From Isosphaeraceae bacterium (GTDB lineage: Bacteria; Planctomycetota; Planctomycetia; Isosphaerales; Isosphaeraceae), in the NCBI GenBank assembly GCA_052146555.1, contig JBKQMU010000083.1:39316-103315 (forward strand): a stretch of DNA of 64,000 nt, in the 5' to 3' direction. Shown here one piece after another: positions 16,483 to 62,365 of the stretch. The notes under the pieces were generated by a model, which was given only the letters and a program-made list of their open reading frames with translations, ran no database searches and had not been told where the DNA came from. Both the position numbers and the translations under genes were made by a program. The number at the start of each line of letters is the position of its first letter. Positions within the stretch are counted from its first letter, which is position 1.

Positions 16483-16751
16483 CTAGTTCTACTGTATCGG
16501 GTCGCCATCGAGACACAAACCTTTTGATGTCGTGTACTTATGAAGAATTCGCTCGGCAAGAGCCCCTGAGCCCTCGGATCGACCCATTTTTTCAGTGCTC
16601 GCAAGGAAACTCCGATTTTTTCAGGCAACCGCCGGCATCCGCTTGTCTGTAGTATGTCGACAAAACTCGCGAGCACCAGAAATTGCAGAAAATCTAACCT
16701 AAGCCACTGAAACAAGTTCCGCCGCGTCTGGACCCGATACAGTAGAACTAG
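16483..16751. mobile_element. MITE-like / internally deleted IS (269 bp)
   Basis: Perfect 21-bp terminal inverted repeats CTAGTTCTACTGTATCGGGTC (16483-16503) and GACCCGATACAGTAGAACTAG (16731-16751); no transposase inside. Confidence 0.8.
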
Positions 16752-16832
16752 AGGAAAGAAAGAAGAAAGAAAAGGACATGGAAAAAAGGAAGAAAGAAAA
16801 AGAAGAAGAAGAAAAGAAAAGGACATGCAATG
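16752..16832 (-). repeat. Low-complexity purine tract anchored on a CATTGCATGTCCTTTT core (minus strand)
   Basis: AAAGGACATG occurs twice amid AAG/AAAG stutter. Confidence 0.75.
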
Positions 16833-16911
16833 TTTTCACATAGCGAACGGCAATAATGAGCAAGTCATTGTGCTGGGTCGTGATCCAGCCTACTCGACTG
16901 ACCCCTTCGCT

Positions 16912-17595
16912 TCATTCGCTATTGTAGAGTTGCGGCAGAAAGTTCTCCAATGAGCCCATCTCTTCAACGGCGTGCTTGAGCCAGGCGTGTCCTTTCGCAT
17001 TGGGGAACATCAGCGCGCTCACCGGCTTGGAGAGTACCCAGAGTTTCATGTTTCCCGGCGTGATCAGGCGGTGTTCAAAGCGCGTTCCGCCTTCCGTCTG
17101 ATGGAAGTCGTGCTCCATCCGCACGATCGAGAGACCGGCGACGACGACGTTGTTGATGAAGCCGGTTTCGTCGAGCTTCTCGATTCTCGCGGTGACATCG
17201 GTCTTATAACGCGGGTTTCGAGCGATGAATTCGCAAATTCGGATCTGCGCTCCGGGCCCTATTGACCCGTCCGGAGAGCGTCGCACGTAGCGCACCCAAC
17301 AGTGATCGAGGGGGTGGAAAACGCGGTACCGGCTGAGAAGGCTGCCCCCGATCTCGACTTCGCCTTCAAGGTGACCGAACCACCAGACGAGCATCTTGGG
17401 AGTAATGCCCTTGAGGAATTCGTCGACCCAAAAACACCTGCGTCCGTCTGCGAGAGTCTTCAGCCCGGACCTCGCCGAAGAAAATGGCTTGAGCTCCCAT
17501 GGCAGGGAGAGCGGTTCCGGTGGCGTGGAGCTCGAAGGACCCGTGTTCATTGAATCTGTGCCTGGCGCGGCCTTCAGGTCGGCGTCCGAAGGCAC
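16912..17595 (-). CDS. DAPG hydrolase PhlG-like protein
   Basis: GITPKMLVWWF, RYRVFHPLDH, ICE, WLKHAVEEM...FLPQLY; the H/E/H-x3-E pattern matches PhlG Zn ligands. Start 17595 or 17550. Confidence 0.65.
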   Translation of the reverse strand: MPSDADLKAAPGTDSMNTGPSSSTPPEPLSLPWELKPFSSARSGLKTLADGRRCFWVDEFLKGITPKMLVWWFGHLEGEVEIGGSLLSRYRVFHPLDHCWVRYVRRSPDGSIGPGAQIRICEFIARNPRYKTDVTARIEKLDETGFINNVVVAGLSIVRMEHDFHQTEGGTRFEHRLITPGNMKLWVLSKPVSALMFPNAKGHAWLKHAVEEMGSLENFLPQLYNSE

Positions 17596-17975
17596 GTTTT
17601 CGCCCGCAAGCTGAGAGGTTGAGATAGCTTCGGTTCGATGAACGCCATCGGATTAAGTGCCTTGCGCCTCGTTAGCCGCGGGCTTTCATCTTCCTTGAAA
17701 CTGCGCCTTAAGTATAGTGTAGTGTGTCAGCCCAAGTGGCACAAAGCCTTGGTTAGAAATCAGCCTCCTTCGGGGGTTCGATGATGAGAACCTGGAGGTC
17801 CGATAATGAGCGTTGCCCCAAACGCCGCAATTCGACGCTGGTGCTCTGTCACTTCTTGATTATCGGCTAAACACAGGACAGTTTCTCTCGAGAATCATCT
17901 GCTTTCATGCACCATTCGTTGCTGAGACGGACTGCAAACGGGGAGAATCGCTGAAAATCAGTGTCAAAATGGATA

Positions 17976-18610
17976 ACTATGCATGTCCTTTCCTTTCTTC
18001 CGGGGCGGGATTATGCGTTGTTTACTAGCATTCTAATCTAAATCCATATAAAAAGACGTATCTATCTCACATACTTTGCCGTCACTAAACCACAGCTTTC
18101 GGGTCCAGTAGTTCCCAAATGGTTTACCCGCGCGTGTGTAATTCCACACTTCGCGTCTGTATTCCCACACTTCGCCCTCCGATTCTCCTGGAGTATCCCA
18201 ATTGACATCAATTCGTCCCAATGGCGGCCCCATGATTTCCTCGACCTGACGAGCACTCATTCCAATTCGCAGGGAACGAAACGATGACTCATTGTACCCT
18301 TCTGCATAAACTGTCGACGTATGATTATCAAGTGAACATATACAATAGAGAAGCACATCCAATGGACTGGGGTTATTAAAGATCATATGCACGGTGCAAG
18401 AAAAAACTATCCCGGCCATGGCCACAGCGGCTGCCATACGCCACACGCTAGGGTGTACCTTCCACAGTCGCATCGCATCGATCCCACTTAAAAGGAGGGG
18501 CAGCGGTTGGACGCCGCTCGCGGTGCAGCCCTCAGAGCAAAAAGCTCGGTCCAATCCTGAACAGGCACGCTATCACGGGCCACTATTATGGACCACTATG
18601 CATGTCCTTT
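17976..18610. repeat. 16-bp perfect direct repeats ACTATGCATGTCCTTT (17976-17991, 18595-18610)
   Basis: Read directly; each copy is followed by a short pyrimidine stutter. Confidence 0.85.
18033..18473 (-). CDS. Hypothetical membrane-anchored protein with SmpA/BamE-like domain
   Basis: TM segment, then LRIGMSARQVEEIMGPP...WNY...KLWFSDGKV; visibly AT-richer than the flanks. Confidence 0.55.
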   Translation of the reverse strand: MRLWKVHPSVWRMAAAVAMAGIVFSCTVHMIFNNPSPLDVLLYCICSLDNHTSTVYAEGYNESSFRSLRIGMSARQVEEIMGPPLGRIDVNWDTPGESEGEVWEYRREVWNYTRAGKPFGNYWTRKLWFSDGKVCEIDTSFYMDLD

Positions 18611-18857
18611 TCTCCCCCTTTCTCCCCTGCTTGAGGTCCAGCCGAAAATTTATCCATTTATCCAGGGATGTGTCTCAAGAAATGTCCACTCGCCGCTCGC
18701 TGTAAGTTTCTTGAGAACTGTGAGTTATGACTTGTGCTAGAGTGGGTTGTCCAATATTCTGTCCAATCTTTTGTCCGGCACAATGTCGTGTCAAGGTCTC
18801 CACTTGGCGTTTTCCCCATGTTCGCGACGTGCCGGTCCGGTGCGGGTCGATCCGCCG

Positions 18858-58995: not shown

Positions 58996-60948
58996 ATGAA
59001 CTGGCCAGGGATGGCGTCGCCGAGACAGTACGTCCGGCGCTCTTGGCCCGAGCTGCTGCTGTGCCTTTTTGCAGCGTGTATTTTTCTGGGATCGTTGGGT
59101 TCACCGGAGCTCTGGGGCAAGCGCGAGCAGCGGGCTGCGGCCGAGGCACTGGACACGGTTCAGAACGGACGCTGGCTGGTCGCACAGATTCAGGGTCGCC
59201 CGCGGCTCGAGAAACCACCTCTGCCCCGCTGGGCTGCTGCTGTGCTTCTGCGTCTCAGCGGTCGCCGGGACGAGTGGGTCGTCCGCCTTCCTGGTACGGT
59301 TTCGGGCCTGGCAACGGTGATGGTGGTCTACCTCCTGGGGGCCCGGATCGGCGGCCGGTCGCTGGCAATTACGTCTGCCATGGCACTGTGCACAACGGGG
59401 CTGTTCATCGCGGAGCTCCGGCAGGCGGGCAACGACGGACCACTCGGCTGCTTCACCAGCCTGGCCCTTCTGGCCGCCTGGTGCCGCATCCACTCTACTA
59501 GGACTCTAGAACACCCGAGCTTCGGTAGCCCTGGCGTTGACACTAACCGCTGCAAAGGCCCTCGGGCCTGGGTGTTGCTCTTTTATGGTGCGCTGGGTCT
59601 GGGGTTCTTGTGCAAAGGGCCGATCATCTTGGCCCTCGTCGCCTGGTCGGTCGTTCCTTACCTGGCCTGCACCCACCGGTTGAAGTCAGGCCTACGCGCG
59701 CTGATCGATCCTGCCGGGCTACTGCTCTTTTTCGGGCTGGCCGCATGCTGGCCGATCCCGGTCCTGGTCGACGACCCAGGAGCGCTGGGCGTCTGGATCA
59801 CGGAGATGGGTCAAAAGACGGGAATGCTGCCAATTGCCCATCGGAACCGCGCCTCGCTCGAGCTGGTGCTGCCAGCACTTGCGTTGCCATGGCCGGTGGC
59901 AGGGCTCTCAGGCCTGCTTCTGCCCTTCTTTCACCGCCGCTTGCGACGGCACTCGTGGGTTCCCGGCTCAGTCTGGTTCCCTTGGTGGTGGGTCGTCGGA
60001 AATCTGGCCATGTTCCACACATGGGCCGTGGCGAAAGCCAACTACCTGGTGCCCTGCATGCCGGGACAGGCCCTCCTCATTGGCATGGCCTGGATTCATT
60101 TGAGCCGTGCCGCTCATGACCGGTGCCGAGGGGGACGGGGGGTTCTCGCGCGTGGCGCGATTCTACTTCAATGGCTCATTGTGTTGCTTTGCGGCATCAG
60201 CGTGGCCCTACTTGGCCACGTGTCGCTGGAGTCGGCTCCCCGTCCGGCGCTGGCGCTTTTGGTGGCAGCGGCGAGCTGCGGCGTTGCCGCTGGTTTCTGG
60301 ATATGGCAGCGCGGTTCCTGGGTGCTCTCGCTCTTGCCCGTCACGGCCGCCTGCGCCGTTGGCGTGATTGTTGGCTACGGGTTCGTTGCACCCTGCGACA
60401 ACCTCGCCCGGGGCCACCGGCAACTAGCCGGGCAGCTCGAAAGCCTCCTTCCCCCCGAGACGGAAACCGTCCACTTTTTCCACGAGATTGACGAAGGGCT
60501 ATGGTTTTACCTCCGCCAGCATCGCCTGGCTCCTGTGCCGGGAAGCCAGGCCCTGTACAGCAACAGCCACGACAGACTGTCGGACTTGATCGGCAGCGGA
60601 TCTACCCTGGGCCTTCATCCGCAGCCGTCTGCTACCCTCTTAAGCCAGCAGAAACCGGTCCTCCTCGACTGGCTTCGTCACGGGGAGGACGCGGGAGAAT
60701 ACCTCCTCATGCGCGCAACTCTCTATGATCGAATGGCTTCGGAGCTTACCGGACTTGTCAGTCCGCTCTACCGCGAACCCCAGCGGAAACGAAATAGCTT
60801 GGTTCTGCTCCAACGGCACCCCGCTACTTCAGTCCCTCCCTCTGCCGCCCGTCTGGCCGGCTTACGCATTGCCTGTCCTCGGGTGAACACATTGCCTGTC
60901 CTCGCACCCCCCGCACCCCCTGGCCTCGCATCCCCCGGCACCCCCTGA
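58996..60948 (+). CDS. ArnT-family (GT39) glycosyltransferase
   Basis: EQRAAAEAL...W, RLEKPPL, VVRLP, AGND, GFLCKGP, YLVPC; many TMs. The last about 27 codons lie in the repeat region. Confidence 0.88.
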   Translation: MNWPGMASPRQYVRRSWPELLLCLFAACIFLGSLGSPELWGKREQRAAAEALDTVQNGRWLVAQIQGRPRLEKPPLPRWAAAVLLRLSGRRDEWVVRLPGTVSGLATVMVVYLLGARIGGRSLAITSAMALCTTGLFIAELRQAGNDGPLGCFTSLALLAAWCRIHSTRTLEHPSFGSPGVDTNRCKGPRAWVLLFYGALGLGFLCKGPIILALVAWSVVPYLACTHRLKSGLRALIDPAGLLLFFGLAACWPIPVLVDDPGALGVWITEMGQKTGMLPIAHRNRASLELVLPALALPWPVAGLSGLLLPFFHRRLRRHSWVPGSVWFPWWWVVGNLAMFHTWAVAKANYLVPCMPGQALLIGMAWIHLSRAAHDRCRGGRGVLARGAILLQWLIVLLCGISVALLGHVSLESAPRPALALLVAAASCGVAAGFWIWQRGSWVLSLLPVTAACAVGVIVGYGFVAPCDNLARGHRQLAGQLESLLPPETETVHFFHEIDEGLWFYLRQHRLAPVPGSQALYSNSHDRLSDLIGSGSTLGLHPQPSATLLSQQKPVLLDWLRHGEDAGEYLLMRATLYDRMASELTGLVSPLYREPQRKRNSLVLLQRHPATSVPPSAARLAGLRIACPRVNTLPVLAPPAPPGLASPGTP

Positions 60949-61260
60949 GGTCCCAACGCACGGGGCACACGCATCGCCTGTTCTTGCAGAGCGTGTCCTT
61001 GCGGTGCGATTCCTCGCAGTGCGCTTGCAATGCATGTCCTTGCAGTCAGTCAGTGCAGTCAGTGAGTCAGTGAGTGTGTCCTTGCAGTCAGTGACAAAGG
61101 CTGGGCCCGATGAACCGCCGAGGGGCGTCCGCATTGCCTGTCCTTGCTTTGTCCTTGCTTTGTCCCTTTGTCCTTGCTTGCACACAAGGCTTCGCCCTCG
61201 CACACGCCGTTCGCATTGCCAGTCCTTGTGTCCTCTGCCGTGTCCTCGCACACGCTCCGC
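60866..61260 (+). repeat. Irregular array of six GCATTGCCTGTCCT(T/C)G-like cores with stuttered spacers
   Basis: Cores near 60866, 60889, 60971, 61027, 61131 and 61213; spacers built of GCACCCC, CAGT, TGTCCTTGCTT and CACAC reiterations. Confidence 0.85.
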
Positions 61261-61735
61261 GTACGTTGCACGCTGAGGTCCCGTTAAAGCCTGCCGCCTG
61301 GCGAAAACCTACAGTGGAAACGCATCGATCCGATGGCGTCAGCGCTGGCGGTTACCCAAGGTTCATCATGCCGAGAAGTCGGCTTACGCGGATTGTGCGG
61401 GCGCTTTCGTTTGTGCAGATTTCCTATTTTATCGGACCCCGACGACCGTCACGGCCGTCGTCGTAAAGTCTTGGTACAAAACACGAAGCGAATTCAAGAT
61501 GAGAGGTTTCGGTGTCGATAGAACGGTTAGCTCGCCGTGGAGCATCCAGGGCGAGAACTCGGGAGCACCCAATTGGTGGTATCGACTTGAGGAGAGACGC
61601 AAGCGTCTCGGGTCCCGGGAAGACCTGAACCGAAGGTCCGATGCCATGGACGACCGACACTTAGCAGGGTCAAGCGAAACGGCCGGCCGGAATCGCCACC
61701 CTCGATTTACCGTTAGCTATGGAGAGTATTCTCCC

Positions 61736-62365
61736 ATGTTGAAGTCCTTGACGTTGAGCCTCAGCCTCGCCGTTGCTCTTGGGTTTTGCAGCGTGAGCAT
61801 GGCAGGCCATGATGGTTGCTCGGGTTGTGGTCTGGCCTCTCCGCAGGCTGGCCCGGCCCCAAGCGCCCAGGGTCCGGTCGTGACTGGTTGTACGACCAGC
61901 TGCGCCCCCAAGAAGAGTTGCTTTAGCGGCCTGCATGGCCAGTTTAGCGGCCTGCAATGCAAGCTCAAGAGCCTCTGCAATCCTCCGGTCACGTACGAGT
62001 GGGTTCTGAAGAAGAAGGTTCTGTGGGGTCACCACGGCGGCGGTTGCGGCGGCGGCTACGCCGAACCTTGTGGCGCTGTCTATCCCACCAGCCAGGTTGT
62101 TCCTTCGGGCCAGGGCGTGCCGGCTCCTTCGGGCCAGGGCGTGATTCCGGCCCCCACGGGCCAGGGCGGCTACGCGGCTCCTCAGGTTGCACCTATCTAT
62201 GGCGCTGGCCAGCACGCCTACAAGGCGGCCAAGCCCACCGCGACGATCGCCTCGGTTCCTGCTGATATGTCCCCAGCCATCGCGGGCGAAGAAGCTCCTC
62301 CGGCTCCGGAAGTCAAGGAGACCAGCACGAGCGGCCTGCTCCTCCCGACCCCCTCGGGCAACTGA
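61736..62365 (+). CDS. Hypothetical secreted Gly/Cys/Pro-rich protein
   Basis: GGAG RBS, signal peptide MLKSLTLSLSLAVALGFCSVSMA, YEWVLKKK core, PSGQG repeats. Confidence 0.7.
   Translation: MLKSLTLSLSLAVALGFCSVSMAGHDGCSGCGLASPQAGPAPSAQGPVVTGCTTSCAPKKSCFSGLHGQFSGLQCKLKSLCNPPVTYEWVLKKKVLWGHHGGGCGGGYAEPCGAVYPTSQVVPSGQGVPAPSGQGVIPAPTGQGGYAAPQVAPIYGAGQHAYKAAKPTATIASVPADMSPAIAGEEAPPAPEVKETSTSGLLLPTPSGN

Follow-up and report, generated by a model that had tools for sequence, protein, structure and literature searches.

RAYT-like genes accompanied by non-palindromic terminal inverted repeats (TIRs) have been described under the name TIRtrons, with their products termed TIRYTs (Di Nocera, De Gregorio & Rocco 2013, PMC3733652). 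In these elements the distance between TIR and gene is roughly constant, many TIRs contain the motif GGGGWSAS, and some also make up dispersed families of moderate abundance, with single, dimeric, and clustered copies. A subsequent survey (Quentin et al. 2018, PMC6006769) equated most TIRYTs with subclass 2.1 of the TnpA-Y1 transposases and reported Y---NP as the signature of class 2 (TnpA-REP, where REP denotes repetitive extragenic palindromic sequences). Here we examine a 64,000-nt stretch of an Isosphaeraceae bacterium (the window; contig JBKQMU010000083.1, positions 39,316 to 103,315), in which an array of short cores flanked by “stuttering” tracts occupies 60866..61251. The array probably consists of six gene-less, or “solo,” terminal recognition sequences of a small mobile element of the TIRYT/TIRtron kind, encoding a RAYT-like HUH/Y1 transposase. 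The identity of the cores as element ends is well supported.

The array cores are 15−16 nt long and of the GCAWTGCMTGTCCTYG type on the plus strand, where they start at 60866, 60889, 60971, 61027, 61131, and 61213, giving core-to-core spacings of 23, 82, 56, 104, and 82 nt; these six cores had been picked out in a sequence-only reading, and both their positions and their spacings were confirmed. With up to two mismatches allowed, the window holds seven matches to the core against 0.35 expected, a count reached in 0 of 100 shuffles, the seventh match being at 16818-16833. Read on the minus strand, which is the orientation of the element, the core becomes AAGGACA(G/T)GCAATG(C), and the array comprises six full cores, one degenerate core, and outer reiterated tracts in a single orientation, between a PMT-family glycosyltransferase gene on one side and a conserved leader on the other. 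Core 1 (AAGGACTGGCAATGC, 61213..61227) is preceded by two partial cores (AGGACAcggcagAGGACAc, 61228-61251). The stutter of core 2 (AAGGACAGGCAATGC, 61131..61145) spans 61146..61179 and is made of three 3′-truncated copies of the outer part of the core, GCAAGGACAAA / GGGACAAA / GCAAGGACAAA, which precede the full GCAAGGACAGGCAATGC; Tandem Repeats Finder, viewing the plus strand, reports the same tract as TGTCCTTGCTT units at 61139-61179. Outside core 3 (AAGGACATGCATTGC, 61027..61041), the stutter at 61042..61094 combines ACTGACTG/CACTGACT units with one partial core, AAGGACA (~61077-61083), and is returned by the same program as CAGT/GAGT units at 61035-61094. Core 4 (AAGAACAGGCGATGC, 60971-60985) is abutted by the degenerate core (AAGGACACGCTCTGC, 60986-61000), the two forming a joint feature at 60971..61000. 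Core 5 (GAGGACAGGCAATGT, 60889..60903) is followed outward by GGGGGTGC(G/C) units at 60904..60947, a GCACCCCC repeat on the plus strand that the program reports as CGCACCCCC units at 60895-60947, and core 6 (GAGGACAGGCAATGC) lies at 60866..60880. The sequence between the array cores is itself repetitive. The program output bears out the self-repeating tracts that had been reported beside the cores. These tracts had been described as tails that follow each core; they do adjoin it, but in element orientation they precede it and lie outside the element end.

The array resides in a 137-kb contig of a metagenome-assembled genome (MAG) of 6.7 Mb in 365 contigs (92% complete), across which the core is over-represented: a search with the 14-mer AAGGACAGGCAATG, allowing up to two mismatches, yielded 143 matches versus 30 for the reversed control. 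Intergenic copies number 105 and fall into 59 clusters. Adjacent cores form 43 direct, 8 convergent, and 5 divergent pairs; the core is dispersed ~100 times in intergenic DNA, mostly in same-orientation arrays. On the 5′ side of the core (sense strand), almost every copy carries a purine-rich, locally reiterated tract; sequence on the 3′ side is unremarkable. Cluster orientation showed no signal relative to local GC skew or gene-strand bias (Fisher p = 1.0, 43 clusters), a comparison that is uninformative in so fragmented a MAG.

The cores are associated with the genes of a RayT-like transposase, so that the part of the sequence-only reading that invoked an HUH/RAYT-like enzyme stands insofar as the core is tied to such a gene. 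Contig C359 bears five arrays, and beside one of them lies an open reading frame (ORF) of 343 aa with the HUH motif NHMH and the tyrosine motif YIDLNP; the same core occurs ~75 nt 5′ of this HUH/Y1 transposase gene. The best NCBIfam match is NF047646, “REP-associated tyrosine transposase” (E 5.8e-10; at 39 bits, the score falls short of the equivalog threshold of 80), Pfam Y1_Tnp gives weak matches in 12 of 13 family members (best E 1e-5), and close homologs carry the Joint Genome Institute (JGI) label “REP element-mobilizing transposase RayT.” In an alignment of the family (A1), YIDxxP shows no variation and 10 of the 13 copies retain NH[LM]H; the protein further displays a ~50-aa insertion after the HUH motif and a conserved C-terminal extension of ~150 aa. 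A helix−turn−helix (HTH)-type domain in this C-terminal part was indicated only by a weak HTH_23 match in 1 of the 13 members (E 0.039), with no match to Bac_DnaA_C, and sequence and profile searches of the PDB found no Y1 structure.

The genome holds four RayT-like paralogs, in C359, C105, and C178 and as a fragment in C247 (three full copies plus fragments). Each of the four has a core within 400 nt, for which the probability by chance is ~1e-7. Inverted cores bracket the gene in C105 and C178 and at the C247 fragment, with the layout [purine stutter]-AAGGACAxGCA-(TTGACA...TAGCCT promoter-like)-gene ... TGCxTGTCCTT-[pyrimidine stutter]; the C359 copy is truncated where its contig ends. A 97%-identical metagenomic copy (L054) has its right end ~320 nt past the stop codon, again with an outer stutter, and both of its ends are locally duplicated. 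The full element measures ~1.5 kb and reads [outer stutter]-AAGGACA(G/T)GCA-promoter-like TTGACA...TAGCCT-343-aa gene-~200-330 nt-inverted core-[outer stutter]. The right-end sequence of L054 (AAGGACAGGCAAAGGGCAGG...GAGTTACTGCACCTGCCC) is similar, by inspection rather than alignment, to the units that build up the large C312 and C359 arrays, which may be right-end-type solo ends, with AAGGACAGGCAATTGACA units being of the left-end type.

Comparison across the genus extends the association. Of 14 genomes, 10 carry the gene, with between 1 and 24 copies each, and in nine genomes the core precedes the start codon of most full-length copies by 68−88 nt (mostly 75 nt), so that the core stands at a fixed distance from the gene genus-wide; the left-end core is near-universal among the genus copies. 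In this genome’s copies, the core also recurs inverted downstream. Downstream of genes, 12 inverted and 2 direct cores were counted. In genome G005, the similarity between ~90%-identical copies stops precisely at the outer boundary of the core, which is also the outer boundary of the sequence common to element copies. Gene copy number in the 14 genomes correlates with the count of the exact 11-mer AAGGACAGGCA (Spearman rho 0.63, p 0.016), and the count of a control 11-mer shows no correlation with it.

Several findings weigh against equating the array with the ends of such an element. An inverted core within 1.5 kb downstream was found for only 5−6 of 15 genus copies, and many copies in G005, G002, and G011 have none within that distance; the description “terminal inverted repeat” therefore fits only part of the family. 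The protein family scores under curated cut-offs, and an AlphaFold2 model built with 18 homologs (mean pLDDT, the predicted local distance difference test score, of 39) is too poor for fold comparison. Moreover, the array cores carry the inner variant ...GGCAATGCG, matching the left ends of gene copies in G003, G007, and G011, and no full-length gene with a ...GGCAATGCG tip was found in the 92%-complete MAG; because of this, the array copies are either orphan tips or served in trans. The gene subfamily of those three genomes (L029, L036, and L045 in A1) retains full-length ORFs and the ...GGCAATGCG tip variant, with DDRLH in place of DNHLH, whereby the first HUH histidine is gone. Judged from this substitution, the DDRLH copies may be inactive or may use altered metal binding.

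Set beside the TIRtrons, the family shares a RAYT-like Y1/HUH gene with, in part of its copies, flanking inverted repeats that form no hairpin, a roughly fixed distance to the gene, a tyrosine motif of the Y---NP type, and end repeats that are also dispersed as singles, dimers, and clusters. The cores are similar but not identical to GGGGWSAS, which can be matched with AAGGACAG (6/8), AGGGACAG (7/8), or AAGGGCAG. The protein differs in being longer (343 aa), with the ~50-aa insertion after the HUH motif and no clear DnaA_C/HTH_23/HTH_28 tail detected. The gene is multi-copy (3−24 per genome), many copies lack a recognizable right-end inverted repeat, and the solo ends occur mainly in same-orientation arrays. 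Subclass 2.3, as described in PMC6006769, offers a further likeness: a median length of 325 aa, a 55-aa insertion between beta3 and alphaC, the motif YVDLNP (here YIDLNP), and several copies per genome at ~75% identity without flanking REP-like hairpins. It was reported there from Chromatiales and Alteromonadales with NHYH, whereas the present family is planctomycete and has NH[LM]H. In length, insertion, multi-copy state, and absence of flanking hairpins, the transposase would thus resemble subclasses 2.1 and 2.3, a likeness by description and not by phylogeny.

More distant relatives are the REP/BIME and REPIN systems with their RAYTs (E. coli TnpA-REP, Pseudomonas REPINs), in which a Y1 transposase relative is likewise paired with a short extragenic repeat family; REP clusters can also show tandem reiteration with pieces of flanking DNA, as in the array here (PMC3733652). 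REPs, however, are imperfect palindromes of 20−40 nt with a GTAG tag, usually arranged in alternating or inverted pairs, whereas the core has neither GTAG nor a hairpin. Its only symmetry is a 7-nt inner palindrome, GCAWTGC, and adjacent cores form 43 direct versus 13 inverted pairs. RAYTs are typically single-copy, in contrast to the three full copies plus fragments here and up to 24 copies in relatives. With IS200/IS605 elements (IS608, ISDra2), the family shares the HUH/Y1 catalytic domain and, as presumed here, a cleavage site beside the element end; the retention of a flank-borne target sequence at their left end can be listed as another likeness. They differ in having subterminal hairpins and Y---Q in place of YIDLNP and in lacking inverted repeats. 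The element ends here showed no hairpins, and the transposase matched the IS200/IS605 model NF033573 only at E 0.14. To our knowledge, no terminal stutter is known for IS200/IS605.

The stutter is polar. Purine content is 0.69 in the 30 nt outside the core and 0.57 in the 30 nt inside (p 2e-4), and short-period self-similarity, evaluated around exact 11-mers, is higher outside (p 0.001). Orphan copies of the outer half of the core (AGGACA-like) number 35 outside and 17 inside, while orphan inner-half copies are equally frequent on both sides (5 and 6). The stutter lies on the outer side at both element ends and often takes the form of 3′-truncated copies of the core’s outer half. Its units are wholly different among 90%-identical element copies (GGAAATAAA, GACGAAAAA, GGACAGAAA, and AGAGAAA), and the stutter therefore either changes far more rapidly than the element or arises afresh wherever a copy sits. 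There are also longer duplications, of the tip plus 25−45 nt of interior. One-sided outer reiteration at element ends is not mentioned in the available portions of PMC3733652 or PMC6006769, the only papers in the literature searched that speak of TIRtrons or TIRYTs, and the polar outer stutter appears undescribed.

An enzymatic origin of the stutter is plausible, though we would place it somewhat below an even chance. The transposase would recognize the core and cut at or near its outer boundary, and the stutter would be a scar left there by repeated nicking and resealing, with or without extension in between, as suggested by its outer-side position, its frequent makeup of truncated outer-half copies, and its divergence among near-identical copies. 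Once several units were present, slippage or unequal exchange would enlarge the array. In its strongest form, this account would make the polar stutter a direct in vivo footprint of catalysis by a little-studied class of HUH transposase: a nick at the outer edge of the core would leave a 3′-OH that is extended over the first 7−50 nt of the element and resealed, and rolling-circle-like re-initiation would stack nested 3′-truncated copies of the tip on the outside. We offer this stronger version tentatively and consider it rather unlikely. The sequence-only reading had gone further, proposing that an enzyme adds reiterative DNA at the core or that primase−polymerase repair does so. Nothing here shows such addition; replication slippage or unequal exchange could account for the stutter equally well, and primase−polymerase repair found no support.

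Slippage alone is the main rival to an enzymatic origin of the stutter. According to this explanation, the cores are RayT-like element ends, but stutter and arrays arose purely by replication slippage and unequal recombination in low-complexity DNA, with no direct part for the transposase. Some duplicated blocks begin within the stutter and not at the core, carrying the core and 25−45 nt of interior as in any minisatellite, and some units, among them ACTGACTG and GGGGGTGC, are not partial cores and are unrelated to the tip. Both findings count against a purely enzymatic scar, and slippage or unequal exchange must have a share at least in the growth of arrays. G004 and G009, where no close gene paralog was found, likewise abound in purine-rich stuttered tracts, although these genomes may hold more distant Y1 genes that were not scored. 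Counts of purine runs across the genus, taken to tell a target preference from generation by the element, are dominated by a few long tracts. Slippage fits less readily with reiteration that is confined to the outer side at both element ends, with outer-half orphans that are twice as common outside, and with units that differ among 90%-identical copies, which suggests generation at or after each insertion. As a complete explanation, slippage is accordingly a possibility that we rate as doubtful.

That the cores are instead operator or UP-element-like sites of a transcription or sigma factor, through which the array regulates the downstream operon, is very unlikely. At several loci, the core does abut a good −35/−10 pair (AAGGACAGGCAATTGACA-N17-TAGCCT), and the A-rich upstream tracts resemble UP elements. 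The cores of this array, however, have no −35/−10 pair, their sense strand points away from the downstream operon, and the array is not conserved at the syntenic position. Genome-wide, 28 downstream neighbor genes are co-oriented with the core and 26 convergent; this lack of orientation bias argues against a promoter, ribosome-binding site (RBS), or terminator role of the cores. A sigma-54 promoter was rejected on the same lack of bias and, by inspection, on a GG-to-GC spacing one base short. A mimic of an RBS plus ATG, or a series of tiny ORFs, was rejected since the position read as “ATG” is AAG or GAG in about one-third of the cores. A 129-aa minus-strand ORF had no family match, and in this locus the array gives no sign of being a gene.

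Still less probable is a CsrB/RsmZ-like sponge RNA on the minus strand, in which AAGGACA (GGA) motifs would titrate CsrA. RNAs of the CsrB/RsmZ type have their own promoter and terminator, present GGA in hairpin loops, and occupy a conserved locus. One strand of the array does hold 10−13 AGGACA motifs within 400 nt, the genome has 10 matches to PF02599 (CsrA), and fliF is the next-but-one gene. This candidate was nonetheless dropped: the array has no Rfam match and no promoter-like or terminator-like site, it folds no better than shuffled sequences whichever strand is taken (z 0.32 as RNA, 1.24 as DNA), and it is missing from the syntenic site in six related MAGs. The motif, moreover, is the end of a transposase unit, can face either way with respect to genes, and rises in number with the copies of the transposase gene. 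The ten CsrA paralogs, all above the curated cut-off, are unusually many for one genome and are distributed over C88, C141 (2), C220, C261, C289, C340, C107, C126, and C119.

CRISPR arrays consist of identical, regularly spaced repeats of 24−48 nt with unique spacers of constant size. The irregular spacing, 15−16-nt core, and repetitive spacers exclude such an array, and the statement that the locus is neither CRISPR nor a plain variable-number tandem repeat was upheld. Finally, an artefact of short-read MAG assembly is barely credible: although the MAG is fragmented and repeats are easily mis-assembled, the words repeated here are short, have unique sequence between them, and lie inside a long contig, a separately deposited 9.2-kb NCBI contig is base-for-base identical across the entire array, and a near-complete genome of the genus, in two contigs, has arrays of like architecture. 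A scan of metagenomes for strain variants with a 27-mer from the left flank returned no matches.

Three further solo cores lie elsewhere in the window and correspond to related sites listed in the sequence-only reading, which proved real, each with a one-sided purine or pyrimidine reiterated tract. The core AAGGACATGCAATG at 16819-16832 (plus sense) is preceded by a GA-rich stutter with one partial core (16750-16818). The core at 17980-17990 (minus sense; TGCATGTCCTT on the plus strand) has an outer pyrimidine tract, the feature extending to 18001, and that at 18599-18609 (minus sense) has an outer stutter of two TTCTCCCCC units, the feature extending to 18628. The first two tips are convergent and enclose a DAPG-hydrolase-like gene (16912-17595, minus strand), and the second and third are direct and bracket a small low-GC gene with a weak BamE-like match (18033-18554, minus strand). 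The bracketed genes may be cargo, or the tips may merely mark junctions. The whole interval 16750-18630 is low in GC (0.565). About 7 kb downstream of the window, at C83:109401-110350, a block AAGGACAGGCAATTGACAAGGGCCATCGGT...TAGCCT occurs three times, each 5′ of a paralogous small gene (MPEKFNLPSMRFREALGATGLL...); here, the left tip and promoter appear to have been reused before non-transposase genes. The genome also contains other abundant REP-like families unrelated to the core, exemplified by GGGAGAAGGTGCCGCGCAGCGGCGGATGAGGGG and GCCGAAGGCCGGATGAGGG, with 12-mers at 50−80 copies.

The array proper is intergenic and adjoins a flagellar gene region, but the ORF of the PMT-family glycosyltransferase (58996..60948, plus strand) enters it from the left. 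The last ~27 codons of this ORF (from ~60866) and its stop codon are read from the array, with the tail ...RIACPRVNTLPVLAPPAPPGLASPGTP*, whereas the gene stops earlier in relatives. The replacement of the native end and stop codon of the glycosyltransferase by a mobile repeat is the visible effect of the array. To the right follow the conserved leader, a small secreted-protein gene, and then fliF. The noncoding leader, ~280 nt long (61455-61738, plus strand), lies directly 5′ of the gene for the secreted Cys-rich protein (ATG at 61736) and is near-invariant in six other Isosphaeraceae MAGs, in which the adjacent proteins are only 52−60% identical. RNAalifold predicts a multi-stem fold in which the Shine−Dalgarno sequence would be sequestered in GGAGAGTATTCTCC just 5′ of the ATG. 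There is no Rfam match, and the high similarity of the sequences leaves almost no covariation (2 of 80 pairs); on the predicted fold, the leader is a candidate new cis-regulatory RNA. One relative (L021) has a 149-nt stuttered inverted-repeat insert (GCCAGATGGCAAATGGCAAAT..., 2240-2400) in a terminal loop of the leader and a different small stutter, TCCTGAGTCATTGG ×3 (1880-1930), after the PMT gene, where the present array also lies. Analogous stuttering repeats with different cores are therefore found in other Isosphaeraceae.

The sequence-only reading envisaged an entirely undescribed process, which does not hold for the element class, TIRYTs and TIRtrons having been described in 2013 and 2018 (PMC3733652, PMC6006769). 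Possibly new are the polar stutter as a catalytic footprint and the direct solo-tip arrays of Isosphaeraceae. TIRYTs and the Y1 transposases of subclasses 2.1 and 2.3 are common in bacteria, and we found no tests of their cleavage sites or movement in the literature, PMC3733652 and PMC6006769 being sequence analysis only. The present family offers a clean natural data set, with a tip conserved over 12 nt, as many as 24 genes and ~100 solo tips per genome, and a one-sided, fast-changing stutter that may point to where the DNA is opened. Once the family is recognized, its arrays need not be mis-annotated as small RNAs, as sets of binding sites, or as loci resembling CRISPR. Solo tips build up at the boundaries of genes, and if the stutter were indeed a footprint of catalysis, the cleavage site would be readable straight from genomes. 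The elements would then constitute a natural, enzyme-driven generator of new intergenic sequence that could also create new protein C-termini, as at the glycosyltransferase.

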